NCBI GenBank assembly: GCA_964187785.1
Contig: OZ076411.1
Location: 58,094,001 to 58,158,000, forward strand
DNA length: 64,000 nt
Direction of reading: 5' to 3'
Origin: Amphiscolops sp. MND2022
Taxonomy: Eukaryota
Shown one piece after another: positions 11,501 to 62,174 of the stretch. The notes below the pieces were generated by a model. The model was not told the DNA's origin and did not search any database. It worked only from the letters and a program-made list of their open reading frames with translations. The translations under genes were made by a program, and so were the position numbers. Numbering within the stretch: position 1 is the stretch's first letter; every line of letters begins with the position of its first letter.

Positions 11501-11588
11501 TATGATGCTTCTCGTAGTTGACTCTAACCTGCTTTTTGCTAGCTTCTAGTGATCTTGTAAAAACTCTTCATTCCCGTTCCACGGAAGC

Positions 11589-13327: not shown

Positions 13328-13525
13328 TCACTATCTCAAACTCGGTCTGAGAACATTTCAACTGACTCTAGTATCTTTGGTTCTCCATTCATTCTGAGAA
13401 ATTACATTGATTCTTGTTACGTTTGAAAACCTTTTACGTATCGATGAAATTCAGAAAAAGATAGAATTTTTCGGAAAGCTAAAATTGCTCTAAACGAAAC
13501 CTTTTTTCTGAAACATGGCGCTCAA
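13323..13525 (+). repeat. 5' LTR (13323-13515, ends CA, lacks the first ~8 nt) plus primer-binding site TGGCGCTC at 13516
   Basis: Reverse-complement match to 5428-5620; ends CTGAAACA|TGGCG. Confidence 0.8.
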
Positions 13526-30429: not shown

Positions 30430-31250
30430 GAGTCTGTCCATTCACACTGGGCGGGTACCGGCCGAAAGCGTCTAAAATTTAATGTACATGAGCATCAGCT
30501 GAAAATATACTTTCAAGGAATTTCTAGGATGTAGTAGGCTAAAGCTATCCAAAAGTACCTAAAACTGTTTGAATATGGCTTTATAATAGACATATGCAGT
30601 GTATCGTTCAACAGAGATCCAAACTAGCCAAAACACTCTACGATTGGAAGTTGGTACGCATAGTTTGGATTTATACAGTCCATCTTTCATCATATAGTAG
30701 GTTAACTTCAGTCGAACCTGTTCAAGACTGGAAATTTATGAGCATTTATAAGATAAAAGCAGTCTATGTTGCAGTAGAAAGTAGGCCTTTGCCGGCCGCA
30801 ATCGTCTAAAACTGGATATATGTGACGCTATTTCGGTCAAAAGCTAACTTTTTAGCTGGGAGTTTGCTTTTGCTAGCCAGAACTGCCTAAAACTACATAC
30901 GAGAGGCTTTGTAGGTTAAATGCAGTCTGTCCTTCGATAAACAGTGGGCTAATCCTAGCCAATACTGTCTAAAAATGTTCATATACGGTAATACATAGAA
31001 TAATTGCAGTTTATCGTTCAGCCTATAGGAGGTTGAAACGATCAGAACCGTTTACGATTAGAGGTACCCGAACATATACTGGCTATATGCAGTCTATCGT
31101 TCAGTAAATAGTAGGTTAAACACGTCGAAACTCCAAGTTTCGAAACTCATGAGCATTCATGAGACAATTCAATGAATCTTGCTGTAGAGAGTAGGCCTTT
31201 ACCAGCCGCAACCATTCGAAAGTTGATACGTCAGAGGCTCTTTAGATCAT
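30430..31250 (+). repeat. Highly diverged relic monomers of the downstream ~83 bp satellite
   Basis: Recurring GCAGTCTATC...GGCTAA..CTAGCCAAAA..GTCTAAAA(A/C)TGG..ATAT pattern. Confidence 0.6.
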
Positions 31251-31275
31251 TTGCCGTCTATTTTGAAGTAGATAG

Positions 31276-31605
31276 TGATATACCAGATGATATACCAAAT
31301 ATTTCTTGATTTATAATTATCCCCCCTATATGTCTAGACTTTAGAACAGTGCATATCATTTATGAATGTGCTCATTAATATTCTAGATGTAAAATGAATT
31401 GATTGATGTAACTACTTTATATTCAATACCATGAATTCTGATTTGTAGAACACAACTAGAATTGAATCTTCACCGATTAGTTGTCTTCACCTTAAGACCT
31501 AATAACTGCAGCTCTGTTAGCGTCTCTTAAAGTACTAATTGTAATTTCGATAGAAAGGCCCAATTCTATCTTAACTTTAAATAACAACAAGATCCAAGTA
31601 CTTTA
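31276..31605 (+). repeat. 5' LTR (330 bp, TG...TA)
   Basis: Matches 49427-49759 apart from 4 substitutions and a C6/C9 homopolymer difference (manual comparison). Confidence 0.95.
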
Positions 31606-31607
31606 AC

Positions 31608-31620
31608 TGGTGCGACCACC
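31608..31620 (+). promoter_or_regulatory. Primer-binding site TGGTGCGACCACC (possibly tRNA-Gly type)
   Basis: TGG 2 nt after the LTR end; complementary to a tRNA 3' end ...CGCA-CCA; tRNA identity is inferred. Confidence 0.7.
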
Positions 31621-31685
31621 TCTTTTCTTTCCTTTGTCTAAACATTTTTCTACTCATTTTTCCTTTCCATTCCAAACAAACTTTC

Positions 31686-31945
31686 TGTACTAATCACACA
31701 AAGTGATTCGACTCATTGTCGGTACACCCCTCAAACCTTCTTCTGTACTAATCACATCTCGTGGTTCGACCTAGTAGTCGGTACACCAAATCTTTTCTGT
31801 ACTAATCACTTCTAAGTGATTCAGCTTTTTGCTGGTACAACATCCTCTTCTGTACTAATCACCTTTTGTGATTCAGCTACGCGCTGGTACACTTTCTTCT
31901 TCCGTACTCATCACCTTTGACGTGATTCCGCCTTTAGCTGGTACA
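31686..31945 (+). repeat. Five ~42 nt structured units (three-way junction) in the 5' leader
   Basis: TGTAC-T-AATCAC-loop-GTGATT-[CGAC/CAGC]-loop-[GTCG/GCTG]-GTACA at 31686, 31744, 31798, 31851 and 31903. Confidence 0.85.
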
Positions 31946-32662
31946 CTTTTTTCATTTCTTTTTTTACCTCCCACTTTTAAATCATTAAATTTTCTATTTA
32001 AAATTCCTTCCCTTTTCTACCTCCTCCCAATTTTTCCATGCCTTCCCTTGATGACTCCGTTTGTATTTGTCTAATCCTCCTCTACCTTTTTGGTCTTTGT
32101 GCCATTGTCCTTCTTCTTGTTGATAAATTCATTCTTCCTTTCCTCCCTCATGTTATTGACCAATATAGAGCATAATCCCTGCCTTTTTCATTTATGTTTC
32201 TTACCGAAAACCTTGCCACTATTATTCTTTTCGTTTCATACATTTTTGCAATGGTTGTTTTCTTAATGCTCCTCATTGAAAAAAATGTCGAATCTCTCTT
32301 CCACTAACTCCCCCTTCTTCTTAAATTTCCCCATTTCCTTCTCCCTTCTTCCTTTTATATTCCCACTTAATTTATTATCTTCATTTATACTTTTATCACT
32401 CTCCTTTCCTTTTTCCCCTCCCTTTTTGTATGAACCTCCTCTTCCTTCACCCCAATCCTTGCCTTGCCCTTCTTCAACTACTTTTCCTTTCCCTTCTTCT
32501 TATCAGTACACCTCTATATTTTCATTCGTCTCTCTTATCATTTTATACCTACATTCGCCAAAAAATTCATCGCTTTTTTCCCCTCCCTACTGAACCATCT
32601 GTCCATCCTGAAGTTATTATGGATTGGATTTGGTTATATTACAATCCCCATAAACACTCCTA

Positions 32663-35340
32663 ATGACTGACCCCATACAACCCGTTATCCCCCTTCCCTT
32701 TGTTTTCAATGCCTCTCAACGTGTTACCCGTGATATTTCACAAACTCTCACTCAATTTCTTAACAATCTTATTTACAACTCCACCACTCCTCTTTCTTTT
32801 GAAACCTACCCGGAAGATATTTATACAACCCCTCTTATTCGTGAACATCATGACTCTTATTTATACTATATTAACACCCATTCTCTTGTTGTAAATTCTG
32901 AAGAACCCCCATTTTCTATTCCCTTTACTTCTCTCACAACTCGCTCTGATACCTTTCGAAAAAACATCTATCCTAACAATATCTATATCCCTATCGCTAA
33001 TGTCTTTACAACCTTCCTCAATCATCTTCAAGAAAAAAATAACATTTTACCTAAACCTGTTTTTAACCCTTCTTCCATACAAGACCTTCTTCAAAAGGAA
33101 TCTCTTTTTGATCTTCCTAATATTGAACAATTTCGCATTATTGAAAATGATCCTCACCATTGGCTTACCACCGATATTCTTCAAATTCATCATTTTCAAT
33201 ACCAATTCTTTCAAAACCTTACCCTCAATACAAAAACCAAAGAACAAATTCAGATATACTCTTTTCCTTCGAAAATTCTTTCGACATAATTACCAACTCG
33301 TTTGGCACTCGAAATTCCAAGATGCTTGTATAAATTTTCCTCAACAGTTTACTTCAGATGAACTTTTACCTTTTCTCGATACTCCTGATAATCAACACCC
33401 TCAGTATTATAATCTTCTTGATTTTCCTTCCTCTCATTTTAAATACCTTGCCTATGACTCCAATAGTCTTGATAAAAGTCTTAACCTTCCTCCTCCTGTT
33501 CGTCCTTATACACAACAACACCATCTACCTCCTTGAACTGATACAATTTCCAATGTCTCTATTCACACTCTTCCCTCATCTTCAAATGCTGTAGTAAACC
33601 CTACCCCACCTATAAATCAACACATTCCCACTTCTACTTCTCAAGTCACCACAATTAATGAAAACCTTCCTACTTCTCACTCACCGAATCAATATACTAC
33701 ACCTTCTAACACTCCACCTGCCGTTCCTTACAATACTGTTAAACCTTGAGCTCTCCAAATCCCCACATTACCCCCATTCCTCTTTCTTTGAATAATACTC
33801 TTCCTACTCAATCTCTCCCTCAAAACCCCCTACCTTCTTCCACCCATGATCCTTCTTTATTTAATCAAAATCATTTTTCATCTTCTTCCCTACCACCAAT
33901 TCCTTCTATTTCTCAAACTACTTCTTCTAATACCCAATCCACCTCATACAATCCTTATCTTTCTCTCTATCCTACTTTTCAAAACTTTCTCACTAATTCT
34001 TTCCAACCCCCTTCAAACCCCCCTCATCCTATTCCTCCTACTTCTACAGTACCTTTCAATTCTTCTTCTCTCTATTCATCTCTTCATTTTCCAACCACTC
34101 CTTCTGTCCCTTTTGCTGCTTTATCCGATCCTATTAAACTCTTTGATGGCCTCGACCATACTTATCCTCCTGAAAAATTCTTAGCACATCTTAGTGCTCG
34201 AGTAACATTTCAACTTGGACCTCAACCTGTAGATATTCAATCATGTTTAACTTGGCATTCTCGTCGAATGTCTCTCCTTTAATGTTCCCTCACAGGAACT
34301 GCAAATTGAAGCTCTTTCCCTTGTTAAAAAGGATAATGAAAATGTCCGTCACTTCGCTTTTAAAGTCGAAACCCTTGTTACTTAAGGTTGGTACAACGAG
34401 TACCCTTCCACTATTAAACTCAAATGTAATGAAATTTTCACTCGTGGTCTTCCCAAAAAATTAAAAGACTTTGCCAATAAACGCCAAGTTAAACATATTT
34501 CAAGTTCCTTAGAACCGTCAATTCCTTTTCACTCTCTTGTCAATATGGTCGATTCCGAAGATATCACTCTTGAAAAAATTAAAACTCAAGAACTTTCCCT
34601 TGAAAATAACACTCTGTCTAATACTTTTCAACCATTCAAGATTCTCCTTCCGAATCTCCACAAGTTCAAGTAATGGATCCTAACAATAAATCAAAACCTC
34701 AATTCAAGAAATATTGTTCCTTTTGTCATAAAAATAACCACTCTGTTTCAACTTGCTTTCGCCGACTTAATATGCTCAAAGAATCAAAACCACAATCTAG
34801 ATCTCCGACTCCTACCTTTTATCAACATTTTAAAAACCCTTCAAATAAATCTCATTATCCTCGCTACCGTAGTCGAAGTCATAGTAACCCTTCGCGAAGA
34901 TCTCGCGACACTCGGTATCAATCTCGTTCTTATTCACGTTCACATTCACGTCCTAGATACAATATTAAAACCCCCTCCCGTACATATTCGTCTTACCACA
35001 ATCGTGATAGATATTGATATGATAAACATTACAATCACAATCCCTACAAATCATACACTTCTTCACGAACATATTATAACTCTAATTCCTCTCGTAGTCC
35101 ATCTAAATATTACCCTCGTTCTCGTGAACGTTCCTCAAGTTTTAATACTTCTACTTTTAATAGATACAATTCTCCTTATCGTCCTCCTTCTAAACCACGC
35201 AATGATCGCTATCGTAGTAGATCTCATTCAAATTCAAACAATCATTCTCAATCCCAATACAAACCATCCATAAATCTTACACATCCATCTACACCACCTC
35301 TTCAAAGCAACTCCAATACAGAAGCTAATTTTGAAATAAA
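32663..35340 (+). pseudogene. gag: Long Gag: N-terminal extension, P/S/T linker, capsid, CCHC knuckle, RS-rich domain (several frameshifts and stops)
   Basis: DPIKLFDG...PEKFL; FAFKVETLV...EIFTRGLP; CSFCHKNNHSVSTC; RSRSHS...RSYSRSHSRPR. Confidence 0.8.
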
Positions 35341-35341
35341 C

Positions 35342-36320
35342 ATGTATCACCCTAATCCTCCACTATCCCAGTCTTCTTCAACTTCTACTGAACATGCCAA
35401 TGCTATTACACCTTCCACTTGGTTTGTTAATTTATACATTTTCAAACCCAGTGAAGTTACCTCTATCCCTTCTAAACTAGAACTCTTATTCTTACTTGAT
35501 AGTGGAGCATCCATTTGTGTTTTAAATTTACCCACTTTCACCATTTTAGCCGATCACTTTTTAAAATGCTCAAAACATTCCCCACATCAAAATGAATACA
35601 AAACTTTAACCGTTGCCAATAAATCCGAAGTACCTATTCTCCATTATCTAATACTTACACTTCATACCTCCCTTCATGAAAATACTCGTACCCTTGTTAT
35701 TCCTTTTGCAGTAGCAAATATTAAATACACTATTCTTGGAACTCCCTTTTTTGAAAAATGTTAAAACTCTTAATATTGAAAGTATGTCACTGACATTTAA
35801 TACTCCACATGAATCTGGCATTAACACCCTCCCTTTTACAGCTCTTAAAGAAAAGGATTATCCATATTTTTCTTACATATACACTATCAATGTTAAAAAT
35901 AAGCTCTATTTTAAACCCAACGCCTCTCAAATCATCCATTTTCCAATTCAACCAACACTTCCTTTAACGTTTAAAACTTCTGATAATGAAATCATATTCC
36001 CTTCCACGCCTCATCCATTTTTAATACACGCTTCAACTCGACCTTTAATTTTCTCCAAGTCTACCGGAATAATAATACCGAACCTTCAAGTTGTTCTGTT
36101 ATTATTCAAAATATTACTCACCACTCTGCCTTTCTTGCCCCTGGATATATTGGATACATTGAAGTTCCAGCCACTAATATTCAACCAACTCACTATAAAG
36201 TTAATGATGTAAACTCCGTAATACACACCGTATTTCATTCTTATTATCCTGATCTTTCTGAACCAAAACCTCCCCGTCGACATTCTTCTCTTCGCAACCC
36301 TCCAATTGAAATAAACAATT
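35342..36320 (+). pseudogene. Aspartic protease followed by a possible dUTPase-like spacer
   Basis: LFLLDSGASICVL and ILGTPF; downstream QNITHHSAFLAPGYIGYIE is only weakly dUTPase-like. Confidence 0.75.
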
Positions 36321-37800
36321 TGCAACCTTCTCAAATTTTAACCCGACCTCTTCCACCATTGCCATATTCACCAGACACTCAACAATTCCTCAATAATATT
36401 AAATTTCAGTACTCTGATGTCACTGATGAAGAATACTTACAACTCTGCTCCATGCTTGTTAAATATCGAACCTGCTATGCGACACATAAAAACGATGTTG
36501 GTCAAATAGCTACTCCTTTTCGAATCCGTCTTAAACCCAATGCTAAACTTCAAACCCAAAGACCTACAAAAGTTCCTATCCATTATAGAGAAAAATTAAA
36601 AACACTCCTCGATGAATTAGAAAAACACAATATTATTCGCCAAATTTGTTCCACTCATTCTGACAAATCCATTTATGGCACCACATTTTTAAACCCCCTT
36701 ATTATTATACCCAAAGGAGATACTATTAAGGTCGTTTTAGACGCACGACATCTTAACTCAAATACCGATCAATCTTTCGAATCCTGGCCTATTGAACCTT
36801 TAGCTCCCCAACTTGCACGTGCTAACAAAAAATTCAAATCCGCCATTGATCTCTTGTATGCTTATGCTCACGCTCCCTTAGATGAAGAAACTATAACTTT
36901 AACTAGTTTCTCTTCTGGTGACAAACTTTACGCTTTCATTCGTGGATTTTATGGTCTTAAAGGCCTACCCAATTTTTTACCAAACAAATGTATTCATTTT
37001 TTCAAAAACTTATTGACCAAGGTTTTGCATTAGTTTATATAGATGACATTCTTCTTCTTGCAAATTCAAAATCTCACATGTTAAATTTAATTGAACAACT
37101 TCACCAAATTTGTCAAATAAATAATCTTAAAACTGCTCCTGAAAAATCTTACTATATCCTCCTCACCGTCAAATTTCTTGGACATGAAATCGGCAATAAT
37201 ACAATCAAACCCATCTCTTCTAAAGTTGATGCTATCCACCAATTAAAGACACCTACTTCTAAAACTGAATTAATGCGCTTTATTGGATCAAGGAACTTTT
37301 ACTCCAAATTCATCAACAAACTACATATTTCCTTGAAACCCTTTTACACTCTTCTCCACGATGATATTTTATTTGAATGGACTCCTGATCTAGATAAACT
37401 TTTTAATCAAATCAAACTTTCTCTTTCTAAAGATGCAGAACTCGCTATACCAAACACTACCCATCCATTTTATATAACTGTCGATGCCTCTTTAATAGGC
37501 CTAGGTGCAGTTTTATTTCAACCTAACTCCAAAAATAAAATGCAAATAATTTCTTATAATTCTCGTATTTTAACAACGCAAGAACAAAAACTTTCTACCT
37601 ATGATAGAGAACTTTGTGCTGTTACCGTTGCTCTTTCCTAATACGAATTTATTATAATTGGCTCCAAGTTTCCGATAACAATTTTTACAGATCACAATCC
37701 TATTCTTTTCCTTTTCACTCGTAAAGGTAACCTAACTCCTAGACAATATAAAGCTCAAATGCTATTAACCAAATTTTCAAACCTACAAATATTTCACACA
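36320..37800 (+). pseudogene. pol: Reverse transcriptase and RNase H
   Basis: VLDARHLN, IDLLYAY, FYGLKGLPNF, VYIDDILL, KFLGH, TVDASLIGLGAVL, STYDRELCAV, FTDHNP. Confidence 0.95.
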
Positions 37801-38599
37801 GCTGGTACAAACCTTACTGTTGCTGATATGCTAAGTAGAGATTTTTCAACTATTAGTACTAAAACATGCCAACTCCAACACAAAACTCTCCCTCCACATA
37901 TTGATTTCCTTCAACTCAAAAATAATATTTTAAAACCCATTCACTATCTAGTAAAACATGAAGATGTACTCCCTACACAAAAAACTGATTCACATTTAAT
38001 CTTAGCTGATTATGGTGATGATCAATTCACACTCCGTATCCAAGATAAAGGCAATATCGTTAAATATACTCCTCTTGATTCCTTTTCTTTTCAATCTGTT
38101 TCCTCATTCTTAAAGAAATACAAAAAACCTGTCAAAAATAAAGTTAAAATTTTACTCCAAGAAAATTCCCTTTTAATATGATACAGACGATCCCGTTCTT
38201 AAATTAATTCCTCAACAACATTCACAACCATCTCATGAACTTCACACCCTTTTTACTGAAATACAACATCATTATTTTAACGATATCAACTTGTCTCAAG
38301 ACATCCTAACCAACTTTACCAACTCCCCTCCTTTTGTTAATAATATTATTGACAGTAATGCTATAACCCCAACTTCTCCAAAGCCTATACATGCTCAATC
38401 TTTACCATTTTTTGACACTTCCTTCTTTGCTCACTGTAAAGCATTTGATTTCTTTCTCCCTTCCGACACTTTTTTGACAGTACCCATTTTACTTCAAGCT
38501 CAAAAGGATGATCCTGTCCTTTCTACAGTATATAAATGGCTAAAACCAAAACAAAGACCTTATTCCTTGACTCCAATTATTGAAGCAAACTCCTTTTTA

Positions 38600-38887
38600 T
38601 TGCACATAACGAAGTAAATGTGCATTGCAGTCCAGCTAACTAAGTTTTTTTTCCACAATAGTCAACTTCATAATGAGCGCCTTTTAGATAAAAGCCAAAA
38701 CTCCGGAGAGATTCGAATCTGCAGCCTCCCGATTGCACGGCATGAGTGTTGACCACTGTGCCATAGGGACGTTATTGAACAAAGTTGAACTGTTGAATAT
38801 ATACGCATGCGATTAAAATAATATATACGCATATTGTAATAATCGATGTCTTCGTCATGTGTTGCGAAGCACCGCTTCGCCTCTGTG
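38600..38887. mobile_element. 288 bp HINE/Helentron-like insertion carrying a tRNA-derived segment
   Basis: Excision without TSD restores ANSFL-YTYYRQF in frame; subterminal IR CACATAACGAAG / CTTCGTCATGTG; 3' hairpin GCGAAGC-acc-GCTTCGC (38864-38880); minus-strand TGGCACAGTGG and GATTCGAATC boxes. Confidence 0.75.
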
Positions 38888-38889
38888 TA

Positions 38890-40738
38890 TACTTATTATA
38901 GACAATTCCAACATTTATATATTGACCCGATCTCTCATCTTATCCAATATTATACACCTAACTGTCGAATTGTGGAAGAAATCTTTATTAAAACTCAACC
39001 CTCTACTAACCAAACACGTATGTTTACCATTTAAACTTTTTTTATGCTGCATTTAGTGAAACACATTCTCATGGTCATTCCGGTGAAAAACTCTCTATTA
39101 AGACATTTAACCAATTTTTTTTATCCCTCATTTACCTTTATGGTTCTCTATTTTCATCCATGACTGCATTGAATGTCAAACTAATAAACATTCAACCCCT
39201 ATTCCTATTCAACCCCAAAACATTTCTCCTCCTCTTCCTTTTCACGAGAGTGCTACTCACTTCAACTACCGGATCTCCATGGACACTAAAGGCCCTATTT
39301 CTCCATCTTCTCAAAACAACTCCTATATTTTTGTCATCATTGACGCATTCAGTCACTTTGTTGATACGAAGCTCCTCATATTACTTCTAAATATGCATTT
39401 CAAACTCTCCTCCATCACTGGATCACAAAGTTTGGTCCCCCTCAATACCTAGTTACAGACCGAGGTACCGAATATATCAATCAAGATATGGCTCACCTAT
39501 GTTCTCTCTTTCATATTAATCACTCACCTCGAACTCCTTACTCTCCCTGGACAAACGGTCTAGTAGAAGTTCAAAACCGAAATCTTGAAACTCATCTCCG
39601 AATATTTTTACAAAATCCTCCTACTAACTGGTCATTTCAAACTCAAATGTACGCATATGCCCATAATACAACACCTCTTTCTCAACTTATACTTCCCCTT
39701 ATCAGATTGTTTTCCATACCCATCCTCGTATACCTCTCACCTTTTCTCTTAACCTATCTCGTGATGCTTCAAAAAATTGTATCGCATCTTATTGTGAGTC
39801 TTTTCCCCCTCATTCGCATTATAGCACTCAAGACCTTATCCCTTCTTCCACTCACTCCTTGATAAACCTATCTCCCCATGGCTTTTAGCAGCTGAAACTA
39901 CAATGTTAGAAATATATTCAACTGTCCATCGCCATTTAAATCATAAACTCAATTCTCAAAGTTCTACATTTGAAACAACTCACTTAAAACAACTACCTCT
40001 TAATACTTTTGTCATTCATACGAATTTTAAACCTGTTAACTTTTCAAAAAAACTCAAACCTCTCCGAATTGGCCCATATAAAATACCTAACCATCTCTCT
40101 GAGGTAACATATGAACTCCTGTCTCAAGATGGTTCTACATTTCAAACCCATCGAAATCATATTCTACCATATTATCCCAAAGAACCTATAATTTTTCCAT
40201 ATATTAAACACTACCGTTCTACCCCTTCTCTTATTAATAATCCTGACACTGAACCTTACCAAGATACCTTTTCTCGATTTTCCTCCTTAGATTCACAACA
40301 AAATTCAAATCATTCTCAAACCCTTACATTCTCAAAACATAAACAATTCAACAATCTCTCCACTTCCATTCCTAAGTATCAAAATTTTTCACATTATTCT
40401 TCTTTACAAGATAAATTAGATATATTACCATATCTACTCCTGTATACCACAACCCTTCGCATTCTTCTTTTCAAGATAACCTTGATAATACAATTCACTC
40501 TCACGACTCTGACTTTGAAATGCTTCCAAATCCCATTTATTATTCAAACCCCTCAAATGATTCCTTTCCTCAGTTCTTCCCTCGTGTTGCTGATTCTCCT
40601 GATACTTCCTCCTCTCCTTTACTCAACTCTCAAAATGAATCTACTTATAAACGAGCTCCTCATTCCCCATGTAATCTACGTTCACTCCCTCTTCGACATT
40701 ATAATTCATCCAAACCAAACATCGACTTCCCCCCTTGA
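38890..40738 (+). pseudogene. pol: Integrase (HHCC, DDE core, GPY) with long S/P-rich tail
   Basis: HSHGHSG...CIECQ; ISMDTKGP; IIDAFS; LVTDRGTEY; PWTNGLVEVQNR; RIGPYKI. Confidence 0.92.
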
Positions 40739-41067
40739 TTAAATATTCATTCTTTAATTGGATTTTCTACCTTTCCGTATTGTCCTTAGTCTAGACTTCT
40801 ATTAAAGTCCGACACGACAATATAATTAGTAACTGCCTCTTATACACCTTTCTTCACTTTACCTTAGTGAAATCTAGCTGAACGGTTGCTCTCATCAAAA
40901 ATTGATTTCATCAAAACAAAATTAGTATTATTCTCAAATCTCTCTTCACTATTTTCCATCTACATTTCTGTCTCCTTCCAATATTAATCTTTGTTCATCT
41001 TTTCATACTTAATAGAAGATTTTAATATATTTTCCTTTTTGTTTCCATCCTGGATCTTACTGTATTT

Positions 41068-42437
41068 TTGTCCGATTCCTCTTCTCAACCTTCTGTTTCA
41101 AGTGATACTATACCTTCATCACAAAGTTTTTTACCAACTCCTCAACAACCTCCCCTGAACCCTATACCAATCACCCCCTCTTTAGATACCACCCCTGTTA
41201 ATACCCCAACTCACACTCCTCTTAAAACTTCTATTCCTCAACAAACTCAAACTTCTTTAACTCTCCCACTTTCCGATACTGAATCCCCTTTTAACATAAC
41301 CCCTACCCATTCTCCACCTCCTTCTTCTTTTCATATCCCTGATCCTAGTGATATCAACCCTATTCTCCTTAGAAATATTAATAATCCAACCCTTCCTAAA
41401 TCAAAACTTATACCTACCTGCATAAAATCTTTTCGCAGACGCTCTCAGTTAGATAATTCTCTTTCAATCCCTCCACCTTGTTCTAATATCTCCTCTCAAT
41501 CTTCACTTCCCCCACCCAAACCTCTCAAAATCCCCGCGCTTGAATCTCTTGACTCTCTTCAGAAGAAATCAGACTTAAGTGAAGTCGATTCCACTACTTG
41601 CTCTCTCCTTTATCCACGTCTTCCTCCTTCAAATTCCGCCTCTAAATATACAACCTCTTCTTTAGATAACCTTCTTGACACTACTTCTGAATCTACTCTT
41701 CGCCATCCGCTTCGTCATAGATACAACCTTCGCAATAATCGTCGTCCTTCTCCTTCTAAGCAAGTACTAACTCTTCTCTTCTACGCCACCACGCTCAATC
41801 TCTTTCTTCGGATTCCCTCTCTAACGCGGAAAACTCTCCAACTTCGGGAATTGACACTACTTTTTCTCAACGTTCTTCTATTTCTTCTTATAACCACACT
41901 GGTTACCTTTTCTCTCGCCCAACCTCTCAAAACTCCACTATTCTTTCATCTGATAGTCAATTGCTTAACATTGATCTTACTACTGATCAATACTCTACTC
42001 CCCCTACACCTAATCGTGTTGAGAACCCTTTAATCGTAAACAACACTCTTGTCAATAGCCCCCGCCAAGATCCTCGCTTTCTTTACCTTGCCACCCATAA
42101 ACTTAATTCGAATCCCCATATTTCTAATGCACGCCGTCGTAAAGAATTTCTTTGCCTTGAAGACACAAATTTAGAACTTAAATTTGAAATTACAGTAAAA
42201 TTTTATAACTTAAGTCCTCACCCCATTCCTTCACATACAACAGTTAATTTTAAATCTCTTCCTCATCCTTTTATTGCCACAATCCTTAGTCTCTTTGTCA
42301 GCGACCATCCTCCCTTTCGTCTTTTACACGGTTCCATCACATTTCTTAATACTCACCTTTTTGAAATATACTGCCCAATTTTAAAATGCCTTTCCTTTTT
42401 CACTCGCTCTTCTATTTCCTTTCTTCCTATTTCTTAG
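41068..42437 (+). pseudogene. Accessory ORF A between pol and env (P/S/T-rich N-terminus, possibly globular C-terminus), frameshifted
   Basis: Overlapping ORFs 41068-42033 and 41961-42437; no family recognised. Confidence 0.45.
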
Positions 42438-45147
42438 TCTTTTCTCAAATTGCTCCCTCCTCTGATCATGTAGATCCCAATGATCCTCATATTTCGGACC
42501 TTTTAGTCTCTCACTACGATTGTTCTAAACAGCATAATTTAAGACAGTTCAGTCTTACTCGAGTCCAACCATGCGCTCAAGCCCCATCTGCTTTTGAAAG
42601 TACCCGTGCTATTGTCAATGTTTTTGTTCGCGCTAAAGCTAAACGTCTTAGAGCTTGGACCTGTGAAGCTTATGTAAAACGTGAAAAATTTGTCTGTGCC
42701 CAATCGGATTACAAATATCGTCGTCATGATCGTACTGATTATCACCAAAATACTATGGAACGTCCTCGTACTCTCGATCCTACTGATTGCAAACATGCTA
42801 TTCGCCATTTGAATGGAACTAACAACCCTCCACTCGACGCTTTTAATTACTCTAATTCTTTTACATTCTTTGATGATATTCAAAAACAACGCCTTTTAGA
42901 AACAAAACAACCCCCTTTTCGTATTACTAAACTCAATACCTTTCACTATGGTGCTTTTGCTTGGATCACCAATTCACAATTAGTATTAAACTCAACTCTA
43001 AAAGAAAAAGCTGTTTGTTGGGATCGCTATGAATACATTATCGAAAAAGATTGCTGGTCTCTTATCGTAAAAGAAATTGGAATTACTTATGATGATAAAG
43101 ACAATAAACTAATTTACCATGGACATACTTTACCTTGTCTCCACGATGATGGTTTTTGTAAGCCAACTATATTAACACCATTCACCATTGTTTGGTTCCC
43201 TGAAGACCTTTGTTTAATCTTTTCCATTACTTCCTTTATTGGTAGAATGTCTAAACTCAATAACCGTTATTGGCTTGAAACTGAACACTTTTCAATAATC
43301 ACTCCTCTACTATTCAAACAGATACTCCTTATCACGATACCAAATCTCAAACCCGCCTCTCCCGTTCTGAAGTTTTTCCTGAAAATAAAATGTTTTGTAA
43401 TAAACCCACTCCTTTACATCTTACTCAATATCATGATCTTTTTATAACATACAAAGAAGGTTTTAATATGCATACTGGTAAACCTAATCCTCTTCAACTT
43501 CCACAAAATGAACAATACAATCAACTCACTACCCAATTAATATCTGGAAAATTAATTCATACCCACGACAAATTTCTTTTCCCTGCTCTAAACTCTTCAA
43601 ATAATTTTGCCACCATTGATTACGAAGCTCATATCAATACTAAAATGAACTATTCTATAAACCATGTATTTAAAAGCATGTCCGTTGCTGAACTTAATAC
43701 TCTTCATACTATATGTGAAGTGGAAAGAACCCAACTTTTAACAATCCTCTCCATGTCTGTTAAAAATCCACAACTCGCTGGTTTCCTTTTAACCCAAAAC
43801 CGTAGTAACTTATATGTTGAAGGCTCTACTGCCTGGTTATATGATTGTCCTCATCATCTTTCACCTCTATACATTGCTGACCAATGCTATGACAAAATTC
43901 CCGTCAATTATCTTGACACTGTTATGTATGTCGATCCTGTTACACGTCAAACGTTTGAATATGCCAGTCAAATTCCTTGTGAGAATAATCCTCAAAATGT
44001 TATTTCTCTTGACCCAGATACCGATCAATATTATGTTTTAACTCCTCAACCTATTAAAAAAAGATCCCCCTCTCCTTTTTGAACCAACCCAAATCCAAAC
44101 TGCTATCAGTCCTAATACCTTCACTGCTCAAGATGCTGGCATTTATTCTCAAAAAGAACTAAAACATTTTTGGAATCGAGTTTTATTTACTAGACATTCT
44201 GACAATACTCTTCAACTTCTTGGAAAAGCTATTAGCTATGAATTTATGAATCAACAATCTGCTAATTCTTTTCCGGATAATCCTTACCGATCACACAGAA
44301 TTGGTCTTCACGATTACATGTTAAACTTAACCCCATTTTTCTCTCCTGACTGGTTTACCGATGCTTTTATAAAACTTTATGGCTATCCATGCTATATTTT
44401 AACCCAATGTGGAATCTATTTTTCTACCGCTCTTTTCTTACAATTCGCTTTTAACACACTCTTTAGTATTTATCGTTCATTCATTGTTCGAAATTTACTT
44501 AAAAAACAAATTTCTGTAATAACTGCCTTAGGATTTGGTTTCTTTGGAACTATTACCCAAACCATGATGACCGCTATGATTAAATCATCTAATTCACAAT
44601 CAGAATCTGACGATTCAGATTCACCCCACTCCCCATTAGCGAAAACTCACACTATTCCTTCTAGTCCCAAACCTCGTCCTCCTAAGTATCATACTAATAT
44701 TAAAACAAAACTCCTTAATTTAAAAAATAAAAACCCAATGCAAAGATCTTCACCTAATTCTTCCCCAATCAAACCTCTCTCTTCTGTTCTTCATTCTACT
44801 CCCCCTAATCATGCACAATCCTCTAACACCGAAGATTATTCACCCCCACCTCCAAATTATAATTCTCACCTTCCCCCTCAAATAATCTTTCTCCTCGACC
44901 CCCTCAAATATCTTCGATATCTTCTCCCCTATATTTGCATAATTCTCCTCCTCCTGATGACACAAATTGTGATAATTCTTCCAATGATTCCCCCATACAT
45001 AACCTCTGGCAATCTACTAAAATATATCGCCCTACTCCGCCGCCAATTAAAACTAATGACATCCCTTTAACTTCTGTCAATAATATTTTTGACCCATCTG
45101 ACAGTCCTGTCAAAGTTTATTCCTCTTGCCGTTTTCCTCCTGAATAA
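42386..45147 (+). pseudogene. env: Envelope glycoprotein, class III fusion type (chuvirus G / herpesvirus gB-like), frameshifted
   Basis: Signal peptide; HYDCS...N...FSL..V..C; C..........C; LPC....GFC...IVW....C; ICEVERT.LL..LS; LYDC...CYDKIPV...YVDP.T...QIPC; GIYS.KEL; C-terminal TM segment and S/P-rich tail. Confidence 0.8.
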
Positions 45148-45491
45148 TCCATCAACTTTTAATTTCATCATTTTCTATCCTGAATATTGCTAATCTAACT
45201 TAATTTCCTACGAATTGATTTTGAATATTAATATTTTACCTCCTTTACATAATAATTACTGTTTTCCTAACTTACTTCCCATTTCATTTGTCATCATTCT
45301 CGCTTCTCCTTTGGTCACTTCTCCTTACTTTCTCAAAATCATTTGTCTTGAACTTTTCACGAAAATCTTACTTATCTATATAATCTTTTCTATTAACCAC
45401 ACAACGCGCACTTGTATCACCTTCATTTCTTAGTTGCTTATTTATACTAAACTTTTTCACACATTTTCTTCCTCTTCTTTCTAATTCCAAA

Positions 45492-46587
45492 ATGGTAACC
45501 ATAAATCCTGAGGAAGAACTTCTGTCAAGCATCGCTTCCTTGTCGCCCCCTCTTTCTCTCAAATCTGGTACTCTTGATATCGTAATTTTGACCACTATGT
45601 TGCCTATGCTTCCAAAAACTTACCACAACTCGCCTTCTGGCAAAATAATCAAATTCGTTTCTTTCAATTTCAATTCAATTTTCTTAAACCGACTCACAAT
45701 GATCTAAATACTAATCCTAATGATATAACCACAACTCCTTCTGTTAAAAAACTTCACCATCAGACTTATCAACTCTTTCTCGAACAAAAACACCCTCAGA
45801 ATTTCTTTTTTCAAAATCACAAATTTACTTCCCCATTTTCATACCACTCTCACTATTCCTTAAACCATCTCTTCACAATCGGAACAATTCGTAATTATGA
45901 CCCTGTTAAACAGTATTTTATTCTTTCGTCATACCATGACCCTACTCGTCCGTTGTTCGTTCCTCAAGAAGGTCTTAATGTTAATGATGATTTTCTTCTT
46001 CCGACCCACATCCCTAACGCCGTTCCCAATTTCTTTCCAAAAATGAACAAATTAGTGGAAACACCTCTTGATGATCATTCCCGCTCTCTATATACAGCTC
46101 TAATTCACAAACATTATTCTCTCGCTCAACTCAATTTTATTATTGCAAAACTCTCCTCATTCATTTTGAAAAAACAATATAAATACTTCTCTTTAAATGT
46201 CTCTGATGAAATTTTTCAGTCTCTTCCTAAACATACTCCTTCAATACTGTATCTGAACCTTCTCAGGCCCCTTCTGCAACAATCCCTCCTCAATCCACTT
46301 ATGTTCTACAAACTGCAAATCCTAACGTTTGTATTAACTCCTTCTCCTGTCCTACTGACAAATTTGTGTCAGAAATTCTTACTCTCCTCCGTCCTCATGT
46401 TGAAATTGCTCCTAATACCGATCCTTTTATTATTTTAAACCACATTTTTGACACGTTCCGTAATCTCCAATCTTTACTTCAACTTCATTCAACAGATATT
46501 CAAAATTTGACACTCTCTACAATCCATGTTAACGACTTTCTTAAACTTGTTTTACTTGAAACTCCTCCTCAATTTACTTCATCTTAA
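45492..46587 (+). pseudogene. Accessory ORF B downstream of env, fragmented
   Basis: Consecutive protein-like ORF pieces 45492-45707, 45953-46438 and 46366-46587. Confidence 0.45.
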
Positions 46588-47282
46588 AATTCTTCTCTCC
46601 TATTGGTAAATTTTCTTTAAATCCAATTTTTAATCAATATTTTTTTAAATCCAATTTTTAATCACTTTCACCTGACTTCAACTACTTCGGTAATTACTCC
46701 CGTTCACACCTTCAAACATAACTACCAACACTTCGAAAAATTTTTCCTCCTTTCTTCTAGAATCCTTTCCTATCTCACAGCCTTCTTGTCTTTCTACTTT
46801 CAAATCTCTTATCACTCATACCTGAAATCTTTTCAATTCTTTGACAACGACTCATTCCACTTCCTATATCTTATCTTTCATTGACTTCTTACACAATTAT
46901 GTTTTTCACTCCTAATTAACATATATCACTCCTTTTCCTTTTTCTCTTGACACTTCTTCCTATTAGTTTCTTTTGTTCTTAGACCTATTCACTTGACATT
47001 TTCACTTGTTCTTCTTTCATGAGTTTTGACAACCTACTCTTAATCTTTTATAACTATTATTTCTAAAGTATTTTCTCTTCTTTAATTTCTCTTTTTCACT
47101 TGCTCTTTCAAAGTCTCTAAAGTTCACTACTTCAACGAATATCCATTTTCCAGTTTTCAACTCATATTTTTTCTTCTCTGACATAAATAAATTTGATCAC
47201 AACATCCTCTGTATCTATATTAAATTCCTCCGAATTATTTAAAATTAATACAAAATAACTCAGCAATAATTTTGTTTCAGTA

Positions 47283-47900
47283 ATGTCATCTTATCCTCCT
47301 TCCACTTTGGCATATCCTCTTTTTAATCAACTCCTCGACTCCTTTCTGCCATTCCCCGTCTCTTCTACTTCTTCGACGTTCACTCTTTCATCCATTGATA
47401 CTTCTTCACCTTTGTCTGTGGCATCACTTGTTTCTTCAACTTCTGCTGTTCAATTGCCACCCATGTCTTCTCTCTTGACAACAACTGCTTCTACTACTCT
47501 TCCAGTGCTTTCTTCTTCTCTTCAAACTCCAGTTTCGATGACAGACCCCACTCCTTCTCTTCACCCCAAAGATGCAGTCGCCACTTCTCCCAATCTTCAA
47601 CAATATTCAGCCGTCCGTCAATTGACCAATGATCTTCAACTGAAGAAACCACGGCACCCCAGACGTCCACAGCTACCTCTAGATGGAATTGGTCCACCTG
47701 TCCGTCGACTGGTCCACACAGCTGTCTATAAACAGAAACTCGCACATTATATTGATGCATTAAAACTTTATGAAACACATCTTGATGAACTTATTCAGCA
47801 AACTACTCTTGAATTGGATAATATTAATAATAAACTCCCCCTTCAAAATTGCGAAAATTTAAATCGACTCAGTCGAAAACTAGACATTTATCCCCTTTAA
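47283..47900 (+). CDS. Accessory ORF C, intact 205 aa (S/T-rich N-terminus, basic middle, coiled-coil C-terminus)
   Basis: Intact ORF preceded by the splice-acceptor-like TTTTGTTTCAG (47270-47280). Confidence 0.55.
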   Translation: MSSYPPSTLAYPLFNQLLDSFLPFPVSSTSSTFTLSSIDTSSPLSVASLVSSTSAVQLPPMSSLLTTTASTTLPVLSSSLQTPVSMTDPTPSLHPKDAVATSPNLQQYSAVRQLTNDLQLKKPRHPRRPQLPLDGIGPPVRRLVHTAVYKQKLAHYIDALKLYETHLDELIQQTTLELDNINNKLPLQNCENLNRLSRKLDIYPL

Positions 47901-49426
47901 ATATTCAAATCCCCTTCCATAATTGTTCTAATTATCTTAATTACTTCCAATGCAATACCCCCCATTGTTCGCATGTACCAGTCAAATACACACTCCGTTC
48001 TCCTTTACCTCCCCTCTCTCTTTCCCCGCATTAATTCCCAATCGTATTGAACCCATAACACCATCCTCTCAATCACCCACCCCCTTAAACGATTTAGATA
48101 ACTTAGTAACGTCATTAAATGATGATTAAAATGTTTCATATGTTCGTTTTCCCTACATATTTTTGTACATTTTGTTCAAAACTATCTCTGTTCTTATGTT
48201 CTTAGTACAACAATCTCACCCCCTCCCTATTTTGCTTTTAACCCCCCCCACCTTCTACCTTTATGCTATACCCTTCCTTTCTCCCCCTTACTTTTCCCCC
48301 CTGACGTCATACAATTTCTTTGTAAAATTCCCTTTTAACTTCGGTTCTAACTGACAAAATTTTACAAATCCCATCTTAGCATGTTGCTCTCGCCCCAATT
48401 TCTCCTGAAATGTGGAGCTACTTTTTTTCTTTTCACCTTTCTTCCACTTTAATAGACATTTTTTCAAACAAAATTCCATTTTTTTAACCTTTCTCCCAAA
48501 AATTTTAACTTTGATTCTCTATAACTTCAGTTCTAACACCTTTTTTTTCTTCTTACTCTTACTAAATCACATATTAAAACTCACTCACCTCAGCATCTAA
48601 CTCTTCGTCACTTGCTGATTTCGCAAATAAATTTGCTTGCTCAAAATTTTCTTTGCCTTTTCTCAATTGAAAAATTAACCTGCCACATGATATAATTTTG
48701 AACACATGTTGACTCATATGGATTTGTTTTGGCTTCCAAATTTGTTTTGATCACGCCGCCTTCTTGCTTTGAAGTTCCGCCATTTAATCTTAGTTGTTCA
48801 AAAGACTAAAGAGATAAATGCTTAGTTACCCGACAACTAAGAATCTTGGTCTTTCACTCTGAACTTCTTTGTCAATCAGGCTGCCATTTCTTGCCAATCT
48901 TTTAATTTTTCCAAATTTCTGCCTGTCACTCAAATCTTTTACCGCCTCGGAAGAAACTTGAAGAAACTTAGAATAGATATTATATGAAAATTTCATAGAC
49001 CTCGAAAACACTAAACTACTAAAATCATCACCAATATGAATATGCAAATCACCCTCAAAAATTCAAAATTTTTTCTTGTAATTTCTAAATACATCCTCTG
49101 GCCTACCGATTAAACAAATGTACTTAACTACCTGCTGAAATAATCTCACTCAGGCTTAGACCCGATACTGCCGGTAACTTACGAAAGGAAAGAAATGAAG
49201 ACAACTTTCTATTAAGACAATTCCAATCAAAAAATTTTTTTTTCATTCATAAAACTTTATATCACAGACTGCCAAACCTTCTCTTATTATTCTTTCTCTT
49301 CATACGTATTAAACCAACCTCCGACAATTTGAATGAAACCTCCACTTCCAAAATTTACACCAATAAAATTTAAAATCAACACCAAATTTAATTTTAAAAA
49401 ATTTCTCTTTTCAAAACCCGGTCGGA

Positions 49427-49759
49427 TGATATACCAGATGATATACCAAATATTTCTTGATTTATAATTATCCCCCCCCCTATATGTCTAGACTTTAGAA
49501 CAGTGCATATCATTTATGAATGTGCTCATTAATATTCTAGATGTAAAATGAATTGATTGATGTAACTACTTTATATTCAATACCATGAATTCTGATTTGT
49601 AGAACACAACTAGAATTGAATCTTCACCGATTAGTTGTCTTCACCTTAAGACCTAATAACTGCAGCTCAGTTAGCGTCTCTTAAAGTAATAATTGTAATT
49701 TTGATAGAAAGGCCCAATTCTATCTTAACTTTAAATAAGAACAAGATCCAAGTACTTTA
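49427..49759 (+). repeat. 3' LTR (333 bp)
   Basis: Direct repeat of 31276-31605, followed by TSD ATAG. Confidence 0.95.
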
Positions 49760-50334
49760 ATAGGAAGCCATTGCTAGCCTAAACTGTCTAAAACTGGAAT
49801 TACAAGCGGCTCTGTGGAATATATAGTCTGTCTTTCAATAGACAAAAATCTAATGCTAGCCAAAACTTTTCAAAAAATGTTCATATACGAGTATACATGT
49901 GACATTTGCAATCTATCGTTCAGCATGAAGCAAGCTAGAACCAACCAGAATTTTATAATGATTGGAAGTACCTAAGCATCTGTTGGGTATTTACATCGTT
50001 CAGTAAAGTACGTTGGAACAAGTCGAAACAGTCTGTTGGCGCCAGTCACTTGCAAGATCAGAAACTCAAAGTTGAACGTGATTGATAAAACTTATATTTC
50101 AAAACACTTAGAAACATTGTCACGATTTTAGTTAGAAAATTACAAGTTTCACCAGAAAAAGGGTATTGCAAAATGTGCAACCCCCCTCTCGTCCCGATGA
50201 ACCACTTCATCAATCACCTTGAAACTCGGCACACATATAGTGGTGGTGCTATCCTAACCTTTCACTTCTAACACCCTACACCGTATCTCCCCTGGGTTCA
50301 GAGCAATTAACACCCAAAGTGATCTAGGTCGGAC

Positions 50335-62030: not shown

Positions 62031-62174
62031 TGTATATGTATCTTCGAAACCCAGTTTCATTTTCAAATTGGTGCAGAAATAGCTCCTGTCCATTAATACA
62101 TACTCAGCAAACTGATGTAAACGCCGCTGCGAGCTCACAACGCTTTATGTTAAAGTATAAATTACTCCATTTCA

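Follow-up and report, generated by a model that had tools for sequence, protein, structure and literature searches.

Ty3/Gypsy elements with a chuvirus-related class III env gene have been described in metazoans as gB-type "errantiviruses", which, like the element reported here, have a Ty3/Gypsy pol, the order gag-pol then env, multiple copies and invertebrate hosts (Chary and Hayashi, PMC13524379). The screen behind that survey covered regions of up to 10 kb with a pol-env gap of at most 1 kb, and its main text makes no mention of "accessory" or "extra" ORFs (PMC13524379). Elements far above 10 kb are also on record, as described for the planarian giant Gypsy element Burro/GYPSM1, Ogre and the 17-kb fish foamy-like ERVs, and resemble the present element in copy number (thousands for Burro), in env homology and in their capacity to encode accessory proteins (PMC6431247). 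Small conserved ORFs located before gag, including membrane peptides under purifying selection, occur as sORF1 and the FAST-like sORF2 in the Drosophila MDG1 group (PMC11952523). Non-env accessory genes are found in other animal Gypsy elements, namely CERV in Cer1 of C. elegans (PMC10309623) and the rotifer ORF3s (PMC5408684), with a single extra gene per element.

We analysed a window of 64,000 nucleotides from Amphiscolops sp. MND2022 (contig OZ076411.1), in which positions 31276-49759 are one decayed insertion of a Ty3/Gypsy LTR element with a chuvirus-like class III env aboard. The original prediction of paired LTRs flanked by an ATAG duplication was confirmed, and a primer-binding-site-like 11-mer is also present. 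The features are as follows, with sizes as in the family where stated:

31272..31275, plus strand: left target-site duplication ATAG
31276..31605, plus strand: 5' LTR, 330 nt, with TG...TA termini
31608..31618, plus strand: primer-binding-site-like TGGTGCGACCA, an 11-mer starting with TGG, conserved in both families
31682..31953, plus strand: five ~54-nt tandem units, each a predicted three-way junction
32038..32175, plus strand: ORF 0a, 45 aa, with one strongly hydrophobic segment
32194..32307, plus strand: ORF 0b, 37 aa, hydrophobic
32430..32663, plus strand: ORF 0c, 77 aa, with a hydrophobic N-terminal half and a conserved C-terminus
32663..40738, plus strand: gag-pol, at family level a single frame of about 2,650 codons, which is interrupted here
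38601..38888, no strand assigned: 288-nt insertion inside pol, private to this copy and absent from the others
41050..42384, plus strand: ORF A, about 445 aa, likely CUG-initiated, frameshifted in this copy
42386..45147, plus strand: env, about 920 aa, a chuvirus/Monjiviricetes-type class III fusion glycoprotein, frameshifted here
45492..46587, plus strand: ORF B, 495 aa in the family, with about 380 nt missing here at 45579
47283..48129, plus strand: ORF C, about 300 aa, frameshifted here
49413..49426, plus strand: CCCGGT-N-GA motif directly before the 3' LTR, common to both families
49427..49759, plus strand: 3' LTR, 333 nt
49760..49763, plus strand: right target-site duplication ATAG

Eight genes are under purifying selection in the family: the three small hydrophobic ORFs, gag-pol, ORF A, env, ORF B and ORF C. 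The predicted Gypsy genome of complex-retrovirus type, in which accessory genes flank env on either side, was supported, and ORFs A, B and C proved to be genuine genes, each with purifying selection; the accessory set stood, while its number rose from the three or four proposed to six. Both grounds that had been named for refuting the prediction failed, namely other copies lacking 41-49 kb and accessory ORFs free of purifying selection. Taken together, the locus is one decayed copy of an abundant Ty3/Gypsy element of 18-19 kb with eight selected genes, which likely functions as a complex endogenous virus that moves between the cells of its invertebrate host. Unlike in the gB-type errantiviruses, 1.6 kb with ORF A lies between pol and env, two genes follow env and three precede gag, a layout that the published screen could not return because of its 10-kb and 1-kb limits (PMC13524379). 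In Burro, the extras including env are part of one ~4,900-aa polyprotein with the host domains BIR, BCL2 and MATH, whereas the extras here are six orphan ORFs, each on its own, and env is a distinct gene behind pol (PMC6431247).

The two LTRs differ by four substitutions and one 3-nt gap inside a C-run, and all ten other LTR-paired copies examined have 4-nt target-site duplications, with element lengths of 18,383-18,898 nt. Paired LTRs with 4-bp duplications (4-6 bp are expected) and a protease-RT-RNase H-integrase order after a gag with a CX2CX4HX4C knuckle agree with membership in Ty3/Gypsy. The gag-pol frame (w 0.03-0.28) encodes, in order, a Pro/Ser-rich N-terminus, Retrotrans_gag, the CX2CX4HX4C knuckle, a protease with LDSG, an RT with YIDD, RNase H, a 335-aa bridge, integrase, an SH3-like domain and a tail. 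The Pfam matches at 36961-40742 (RVT_1, RT_RNaseH, rve and SH3_Tf2-1) are of the Gypsy type, and the best PDB match of the RT is the Ty3 RT (E 5e-34), followed by a caulimovirus-type polyprotein (1.5e-22) and foamy Pol (1e-17), a ranking by score rather than by tree. No Pfam family was found for the bridge between RNase H and integrase, the region in which gB-type errantiviruses have a "mini" domain or pseudo-RNase H (PMC13524379). Two common but not universal features of the group differ: the termini are TG...TA rather than the usual TG...CA, and no polypurine tract was found before the 3' LTR in either family. Troyka was rejected as a match, having a 3-bp duplication, CG...CG termini, a CX2CX8-10HX4C knuckle and no env (PMC12440569), as compared to 4 bp, TG...TA, CX2CX4HX4C and an env here. 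Odin/lokiretrovirus has a dual RNase H and an RT that is sister to retroviruses (PMC9040795); in our element, Pfam identifies one RNase H, and the RT is closer to Ty3 by score.

In this copy, gag-pol contains five in-frame stops, and as many as 19 indel calls change its frame. Homopolymer sequencing errors had been proposed as one cause, in which case the locus would really be intact. Some errors or slippage do exist in the assembly, since 22 of the 46 short indels in eight young copies fall in runs of four or more, which make up 11% of the coding bases. Here, however, the proportion is just 6 of 25, and errors of this kind leave unexplained the stops, the private 288-nt insertion and the deletions of about 105 and 380 nt. 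Furthermore, the private substitutions (1.05%) are of the same order as the LTR divergence (1.2%). An intact locus is therefore highly improbable, and the frame breaks are mostly real decay after insertion. The 288-nt insertion looks, by eye, like a tRNA-derived (SINE-like) sequence on the minus strand; ARAGORN finds no tRNA in it.

The family is very abundant and has recently been amplified, as seen in its youngest subfamily, in which the LTR pairs are 99.4-100% identical in 8 of 10 copies. The 41-49 kb region is family-wide and not a local insertion: among 18 copies picked solely by their 5' end, 16 contain ORF B DNA. Each region of the element was found in 25-26 of 27 natural copies, and the starts and stops of its ORFs are conserved, although such counts of invariance are not independent because the copies are related. 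Selection was computed from the variants shared across these 27 copies. For the accessory cores, w was 0.02-0.22, as compared to 0.7-14 for shifted frames of the same regions, with the Ser/Thr-rich start of ORF C as the exception to the low values; singleton variants were near-neutral (0.47-0.93). A second family of the same plan, here called family 2, has the same layout and gene order at protein identities of 32-56% (about 34% for ORF A) and shows the same selection pattern (w 0.03-0.17). The 41-49 kb region might in principle be captured host or foreign-virus DNA, a passive cargo of a large derivative, with ORFs that are compositional artefacts of a G-poor strand. The element strand contains only 9% G, which favours long Pro/Ser-rich frames, and none of the six accessory proteins has a Pfam family. 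We nevertheless regard this explanation as having a negligible chance of being correct: the frame-specific purifying selection in two families is counted as already refuting it, the gene order is maintained at 32-56% identity with conserved starts and stops, and ORF B has relatives at 30-50% identity, seemingly from outside this genome. The antisense module that had been suspected received no support; in the leader, the spacers and the 3' region that were scanned, minus-strand frames gave no sign of selection except for shadows of the plus-strand ORFs.

The leader contains the primer-binding-site-like 11-mer, which is not in the errantivirus table of such sites (PMC13524379) and for which no matching tRNA was found (one tight pattern gave 1 match, as compared to 2 for the reversed control). 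The tandem units fold with a z of -5.3, the unconstrained stem is paired in 184 of 192 cells, and a two-sided swap is seen in 26 versus 19 of 48 distinct units. The array is a candidate packaging or export signal. Coding capacity upstream of gag had been suggested as a possible ORF0, and it is indeed present, not as a single ORF but as three separate small ones. ORF 0a (w 0.22, p 4e-4) has a 40-aa homologue in family 2 (blastp E 1e-7), where w is 0.12. ORF 0b has a w of 0.02, with 18 synonymous and 1 nonsynonymous shared changes. ORF 0c, which is 78 aa in most copies, has a w of 0.22, decreasing to 0.08 for the last 30 codons, and its TAA overlaps the gag ATG (TAATG); both the stop and the gag ATG are present in all 26 aligned copies. 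Like sORF2 and other FAST-like fusogens, these are small membrane-type ORFs upstream of gag. However, the MDG1 elements lack env, while here three hydrophobic ORFs of 37-78 aa co-occur with one (PMC11952523). ORFs 0a-0c start with MPS, MFL and MNL and have no basic cluster, unlike the MDG1 sORFs with their MG start for myristoylation and a polybasic patch behind the membrane segment (PMC11952523). The genomic RNA would probably be tRNA-primed at the binding site and packaged via the hairpin array. We also find it fairly probable that three membrane micro-proteins would be translated from the leader, the last passing ribosomes on to gag through the TAATG stop-start.

ORF A consists of a region rich in Ser and Pro, in which an HRYNLR motif is conserved, and of a conserved C-terminal domain of ~110 aa, with a w of 0.07-0.12 for the variants shared by the 27 copies, and it has no in-frame ATG. 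At its start, a CTG is present in 26/26 and 20/20 copies of family 1 (46/46) and in 6/7 and 18/20 copies of family 2 (24/27), in a strong context with a purine at -3 and a G at +4 in all located copies; in gag-pol, CTG accounts for only 2 of 259 Leu codons. At this codon, w drops from about 1 to 0.18 and the indels change from non-triplet to triplet. Because selection starts at a strong-context CTG, and because a diverged subfamily has an ATG at exactly this position, ORF A very probably starts at CUG. The protein could also be made by splicing of an upstream AUG exon to an acceptor about 60 nt past the CTG, with the CTG block as an RNA signal and not a start codon. The CTG is followed in family 1 by what by eye resembles a branch-like CTTAC, a pyrimidine tract and TTTCAAG, 13 columns around it are all nearly invariant, and the accessory CERV of Cer1 is translated from a spliced mRNA (PMC10309623). 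Against this, we note the natural ATG in the diverged subfamily, that only indels of 0, -3 or -6 occur from the CTG to the AG, and that family 2 retains A(-3)-CTG-G amid different flanks with no fixed AG. The first 30 codons from the CTG also show 4 synonymous versus 2 nonsynonymous shared changes, albeit in small numbers. Splicing is thus improbable, and initiation at the CUG remains our preferred reading.

The env ATG is located 1 nt past the ORF A stop. The density of ATGs in ORF A is 0.9 per kb, as compared to 14-18 per kb in pol, env, ORF B and ORF C, with 1.2 observed versus a shuffle mean of 7.6, and 17 of 20 further copies are free of ATG over 1.2 kb. However, the synonymous-shuffle test of this scarcity is weak per copy (P 0.006-0.57), and Met is rare in gag-pol too (18 of 2,650 codons). 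A weak CUG start and an AUG-poor ORF A might, with even chances, allow ribosomes to continue to the env AUG of a single subgenomic RNA. The argument for such leaky scanning loses strength in family 2: out-of-frame ATGs number 1-8 per 1.2 kb there, though not one is in a strong context. A similar arrangement is found in rice tungro bacilliform virus, where an AUU start and about 900 nt free of AUG permit leaky scanning through a non-AUG upstream ORF that precedes a major structural gene (PMC5902531). That system is experimentally proven and belongs to a plant pararetrovirus, whereas the CUG here precedes env and the arrangement is incomplete in family 2 (PMC5902531). The CUG start, the leader translation and the bicistronic env are steps that we infer from the sequence.

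The YNLR of ORF A is present in 58 of 73 homologues, as compared to 0.4% of shuffles, and the Y-x-x-R motif occurs once more, in the pol tail. In foamy-virus Gag, the strictly conserved Y537 and R540 contact the H2A-H2B acidic patch (PMC6042332, PMC9040877). A complex model of the ORF A motif on the host acidic patch scored 0.71, as compared to 0.02 for the best of three controls, none of which carried a substituted arginine. Among microbial pairs, 51 of 78 solved ones and 2 of 108 mismatched ones reach the score mark, and among eukaryotic pairs 39 of 65 and 2 of 126, respectively; the modelled peptide is disordered, a class that the tool gives as unvalidated. The runs show at least 64% contact agreement and a partner pLDDT of at least 45, and the modelled interface is exactly RHRYNLR on H2A E60/E65/E68/E96. 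The tool may have reproduced this placement from the solved structure of foamy Gag on the nucleosome. The likeness to foamy Gag extends to the Y-x-x-R spacing in a disordered region and to a modelled arginine on the acidic-patch glutamates, but here the motif is in a separate Gypsy accessory gene and binding is only predicted (PMC6042332, PMC9040877). We lean slightly towards a role for ORF A in which the YNLR arginine would tether DNA or RNA complexes of the element to chromatin, as foamy-virus Gag does.

The env product combines a hydrophobic N-terminus and an ectodomain rich in Cys with hydrophobic segments around 670-735 and a long tail rich in Pro and Ser. Its assignment to class III was supported by a Pfam match to PF24664 Monjiviricetes_fusion at 42365-44082 (E 3.9e-27, 94.9 bits, cut-off 27), which is above the cut-off also in family 2 (E 3.3e-25); no sequence match was found in the PDB. 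Judged by this profile, env is of the HSV gB/chuvirus class III type and located downstream of pol. In the gB-type errantiviruses, env is further characterised by a gB fold of five domains, by fusion loops and by cysteine bridges in classed patterns (PMC13524379). With a w of 0.03, as compared to 0.25 in the tail, the ectodomain is as constrained as the RT, and its Cys pattern is maintained in both families. It seems probable that Env mediates entry into other cells, probably from soma to germ line. Alternatively, the element may be an intracellular retrotransposon whose env and accessory genes are retained for tasks within the cell, such as particle membrane anchoring, RNA export or silencing evasion, with no passage between cells. 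Very high abundance, as seen for this family, is typical of intracellular spreaders; in env, the hydrophobic anchors are of modest strength (Kyte-Doolittle peak 1.5-1.7), and a furin site was not found. These traits are set against the RT-like constraint on the ectodomain, its Cys pattern, the membership of env in a viral fusogen family and the wide retention of gB-type env in Gypsy elements (PMC13524379). We consider a purely intracellular life rather unlikely, and passage between cells the better reading.

Downstream of env, ORF B has a highly conserved core of ~270 aa with a w of 0.02 and represents a new conserved protein family, constrained like the reverse transcriptase. Its structure model (pLDDT 60, pTM 0.35) gives at most a weak hint of a small beta-barrel of the Tudor/chromo/SH3-like kind (Foldseek E 1.5 or worse; VIA Z 3.9, rmsd 2.4, 48 aligned). 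ORF C consists of a Ser/Thr-rich start, a basic patch, a predicted helix, a Cys/His cluster and an acidic-hydrophobic end, with w values of 0.12 for the core, 0.21 for the tail and 0.64 for the N-terminus; in family 2, its slot is occupied by an unrelated gene of 150 aa. From their composition and the weak fold hint, ORFs B and C might be nuclear or host-evasion regulators, though we hold this to be somewhat doubtful.

Gypsy elements that carry a gB-type env, Gypsy elements of giant size and small ORFs ahead of gag have each been described before (PMC13524379, PMC6431247, PMC11952523), and the eight-gene layout was not found in the literature searched. Because class III env and giant size have been described, what is new is the accessory set together with its expression signals, and the proposal of an undescribed system holds for these and not for the env class or the size (PMC13524379, PMC6431247). 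An env survey limited to 10 kb would miss elements like this one (PMC13524379). Our broadest reading, which is tentative and at present the less probable outcome, is that an invertebrate Ty3/Gypsy stock has, independently of the vertebrate retroviruses, given rise to a complex infectious endogenous virus of eight genes that is still amplifying. It would combine membrane micro-proteins stop-start-coupled to gag, a CUG-initiated acidic-patch anchor that shares its mRNA with a class III fusogen, the new ORF B family, an exchangeable slot for an ORF C regulator and second-strand priming without a polypurine tract. Since young and old copies are both numerous, function can be tested purely by observation, from maps of the transcripts and their initiation sites, the preference for insertion sites and the tissues in which the element is expressed. 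Genomic complexity in the form of many regulated accessory genes has usually been held to be a trait of the vertebrate lenti-, delta- and foamy viruses. If the broad reading is true, the six selected accessory genes, the non-AUG start and the foamy-like chromatin motif would mean that the same complexity has arisen separately in invertebrates.

The two LTRs of the window copy differ by four substitutions and a 3-nt gap within a C-run, and the target-site duplication ATAG is present at either end of the element, as the original prediction had noted. The coordinates are:

31276-49759, plus strand, element with paired LTRs
31276-31605, plus strand, 5' LTR
49427-49759, plus strand, 3' LTR

The PBS-like sequence TGGTGCGACCA is located directly after the 5' LTR, at 31608, and no priming tRNA was found for it. 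The termini are TG...TA, which is atypical for Ty3/Gypsy, and there is no polypurine tract before the 3' LTR. Pfam matches to RT, RNase H, integrase and an SH3-like domain are located, in pieces, at 36961-40742. The nearest solved relative of the RT is that of Ty3 (E 5e-34), and both the domain order and the CCHC knuckle are of the Gypsy type. A placement in Ty3/Gypsy fits on structure, despite the TG...TA ends and the missing polypurine tract. The env gene, with a Pfam match to the Monjiviricetes fusion glycoprotein at 42365-44082, passes the cut-off of PF24664 (E 3.9e-27) and is of class III, as proposed from the sequence alone. In both families, G makes up only 9% of the element strand. The GC skew of -0.2 to -0.7 across 31276-49759 is an extreme strand bias, also seen in both families, while the private substitutions of the window copy have no strong G>A bias.

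The window is part of a 1.07-Gb animal assembly, in which a first look gave 970 candidates with the 5' end, 554 with the ORF B DNA and 6,834 with the ORF B protein, none of which are copy numbers. All 150 ORF B matches that were scored have at least 92% identity. We fetched 29 loci and based the counts on 27 natural copies, including the window copy, of which 11 were picked via ORF B. Three of the fetched loci were excluded from these counts: one recombinant (68-82% internally), one truncated and one 3'-only locus. The region at 41-49 kb is not a local insertion, since ORF B DNA is present in 16 of the 18 copies picked solely by their 5' end. Ten LTR-paired copies are 18,383-18,898 nt long with 4-nt duplications. 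In the youngest subfamily, the LTR pairs of eight out of ten copies are 99.4-100% identical. In its natural frames, the family encodes gag-pol as a single frame of some 2,650 codons, then ORF A, an env of about 920 amino acids, ORF B (495 amino acids) and ORF C (about 300 amino acids), followed by a 3' non-coding stretch of roughly 1.3 kb. A second family (seven loci, about 18 kb) has the same gene order, with identities to the first of 33-35% for ORF A, 46-56% for env and 32-45% for ORF B.

Several copies are adjoined by tandem repeats or by other family members. The window element itself is surrounded by a degenerate tandem repeat of about 410 nt (30533-31249 and 49771-50029; 68-71% identity). 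Four 5'-end matches are spaced 20.1 kb apart in tandem at G000:C7 8.98-9.04 Mb of the host genome, and two element units have a common middle LTR at G000:C3 37.20-37.23 Mb; both arrangements could reflect unequal recombination or an assembly artefact. Elsewhere in the window, a 166-nt satellite occupies 52311-62041 (58.6 copies, 82% matches), and inverted repeats of about 190 nt (88%) bound a stretch at 5430-13513 with three copies of a 1,550-nt unit and minus-strand RT-like remnants that are BEL/Pao-like by eye. The minus strand at 20954-21538 resembles, also by eye, the N-terminus of a pogo/CENP-B-type transposase. The host genome contains 43 exon-level matches to nuclear-receptor zinc fingers and 82 matches to innexins, a gene content that makes a ctenophore, a chordate or an echinoderm improbable as the host.

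The frameshifts of the window copy had been attributed either to mobilisation in trans of a defective copy or to homopolymer sequencing errors. The copy contains five in-frame stops and a private 288-nt insertion and lacks two stretches of about 105 and 380 nt, and only six of its 25 short indels are located within long homopolymers. A comparison with a young natural copy gave up to 29 frame-changing indel calls, an upper bound because the young copy's own breaks are included. Private substitutions amount to 1.05%, compared to an LTR divergence of 1.2%. Ordinary decay would be enough to account for these breaks, without trans-mobilisation or sequencing error, although young copies are enriched in homopolymer indels (22 of 46).

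To estimate the selection ratio w, single-base variants in the 27 natural copies were scored against the commonest codon of each column, and variants in at least three copies were counted as shared. For shared variants, RT, integrase and the env ectodomain each have a w of 0.03. ORF A gave values of 0.12 and 0.07, the ORF B core 0.02 and the ORF C core 0.12, as opposed to 1.8-14 in shifted frames of the same regions. Singleton variants gave a w of 0.47-0.93, as expected from decay after insertion. The Ser/Thr-rich start of ORF C is hardly constrained (w 0.64), while its tail is constrained (w 0.21). In the second family, the ORF C slot contains an unrelated 150-amino acid gene with a w of 0.03. 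The accessory ORFs are thus under purifying selection, with shared-variant w of 0.02-0.12 for ORF A and the ORF B and C cores, and are real genes.

The leader upstream of gag is also coding and conserved, but the single possible ORF0 of the original prediction resolves into three hydrophobic ORFs: 0a (45 amino acids, w 0.22), 0b (37 amino acids, 18 synonymous to 1 nonsynonymous variants) and 0c (78 amino acids, w 0.22). The stop of ORF 0c overlaps the gag ATG (TAATG) in all 26 aligned copies. The leader of the second family has two such hydrophobic ORFs, one of which is a homolog of 0a (E 1e-7). Scanning the leader, the spacers and the 3' region in all six frames gave no independent antisense signal, which speaks against the antisense module suggested earlier. 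The leader also contains five 54-nt units that are each predicted to fold as a three-way junction (z -5.3), and the stem that was left free in the search pattern is paired in 184 of 192 cells, with one two-sided swap. This hairpin array fits a candidate packaging or export signal; Rfam has no matches within the element. A different 47-nt tandem hairpin repeat is located at the same position behind the PBS in a second-family leader (locus L077).

An in-frame ATG is lacking from ORF A in both families, and homology among its relatives starts at an I-L-D motif. The leucine of this motif is encoded by CTG in 26/26 and 20/20 copies of the first family and in 6/7 and 18/20 copies of the second, where position -3 is a purine and position +4 is G in both families. 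CTG is rare in the element (2 of 259 leucine codons of gag-pol), and in the six other columns where it is the commonest codon it is held in just 11-17 of 25-27 copies. Upstream of the CTG, w stays near 1 and indel length is not restricted, whereas downstream w is lower and indels are 0, 3 or 6 nt. One diverged subfamily has an ATG at exactly this place. Taken together, ORF A likely initiates at CUG. The env ATG is located 1 nt past the ORF A stop, and ATG occurs at 0.9 per kb over all frames of the first-family ORF A, against 14-18 per kb in pol, env, ORF B and ORF C, and is absent from ORF A in 17 of 20 further copies of that family. The arrangement resembles the leaky scanning described for rice tungro bacilliform virus (PMC5902531). 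Three observations count against leaky scanning: ORF A in the second family contains 1-8 out-of-frame ATGs, zero of them in strong context, a synonymous-shuffle test is weak per copy, and in the first family the CTG is followed by what looks, by eye, like a splice acceptor. ORF A and env may be expressed bicistronically.

None of the six accessory proteins has a known family. Searched with A, B, C, 0a-0c and the second-family C-slot gene, Pfam gave no noteworthy match. In the PDB sequence search, env and the ORF A profile had no match, and the best for ORF B (E 0.03-0.04) is at noise level. The ORF B core and the ORF A C-domain had no usable match in the ESM Atlas, none of 76 pattern hits to ORF B in JGI metagenomes was confirmed, and neither were any env-related loci in IMG/VR. 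Homologs among the near-length sequences searched (30 for ORF B, 73 for ORF A and 121 for ORF C) are all unnamed. The ORF B relatives P0024 and P0373 probably come from other hosts, since their best scored matches in the host genome are just 50% and 33% identical. The first ORF B model had a pLDDT of 39 and a later one was poor (pLDDT 60). A 45-residue barrel in this low-confidence model is weakly similar to Tudor/chromo/SH3 folds (E at least 1.5, Z at most 3.9), and a viral fold search with the model returned no result. ORF C contains a basic patch, a helix, a Cys/His cluster and a hydrophobic-acidic end, a combination of motif types that may point to a nuclear regulator.

The disordered half of ORF A contains a conserved HRYNLR, and YNLR is present in 58 of the 73 homologs, compared to 0.4% of shuffles. 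In foamy-virus Gag, the conserved Y537 and R540 mediate binding to the nucleosome acidic patch (PMC6042332, PMC9040877). A complex model of a 36-residue natural ORF A piece with host H2A/H2B scored 0.71, and the best control 0.02. Among microbial pairs, 51 of 78 solved and 2 of 108 mismatched ones attained the mark, and among eukaryotic pairs 39 of 65 solved and 2 of 126 mismatched ones did. Model runs agreed in at least 64% of contacts, with a partner pLDDT of at least 45. The confident contacts join RHRYNLR to H2A E60, Y61, A64, E65, E68 and E96, which by our own count correspond to the canonical E56-E64 and E92. Because peptide partners are a class without a benchmark for this tool, and solved complexes may have been memorised, the model supports a likeness rather than binding itself. 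ORF A may act in chromatin tethering through the motif. The host histone genes at loci L091 and L095 form a 3.63-kb H3-H2A-H4-H2B repeat, in which H3 and H4 are noticeably divergent; of 1,594 candidates, 150 were scored.

Gypsy elements whose env is of the gB or chuvirus type are widespread among animals (PMC13524379, a screen limited to 10 kb in length and a pol-env distance of 1 kb). Giant Gypsy elements such as Burro and Ogre and 17-kb fish ERVs have been described before (PMC6431247). Small ORFs upstream are on record for MDG1 elements, which have no env (PMC11952523), and Cer1 (PMC10309623) and rotifer elements (PMC5408684) have a single extra gene each. Troyka (PMC12440569) was rejected as the identity of the window element. 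The literature searched, with Repbase, most subscription papers and bioRxiv supplements outside its range, describes neither this eight-gene plan nor a CUG-started gene ahead of env. The element would function like a gB-type errantivirus, and it may be infectious.
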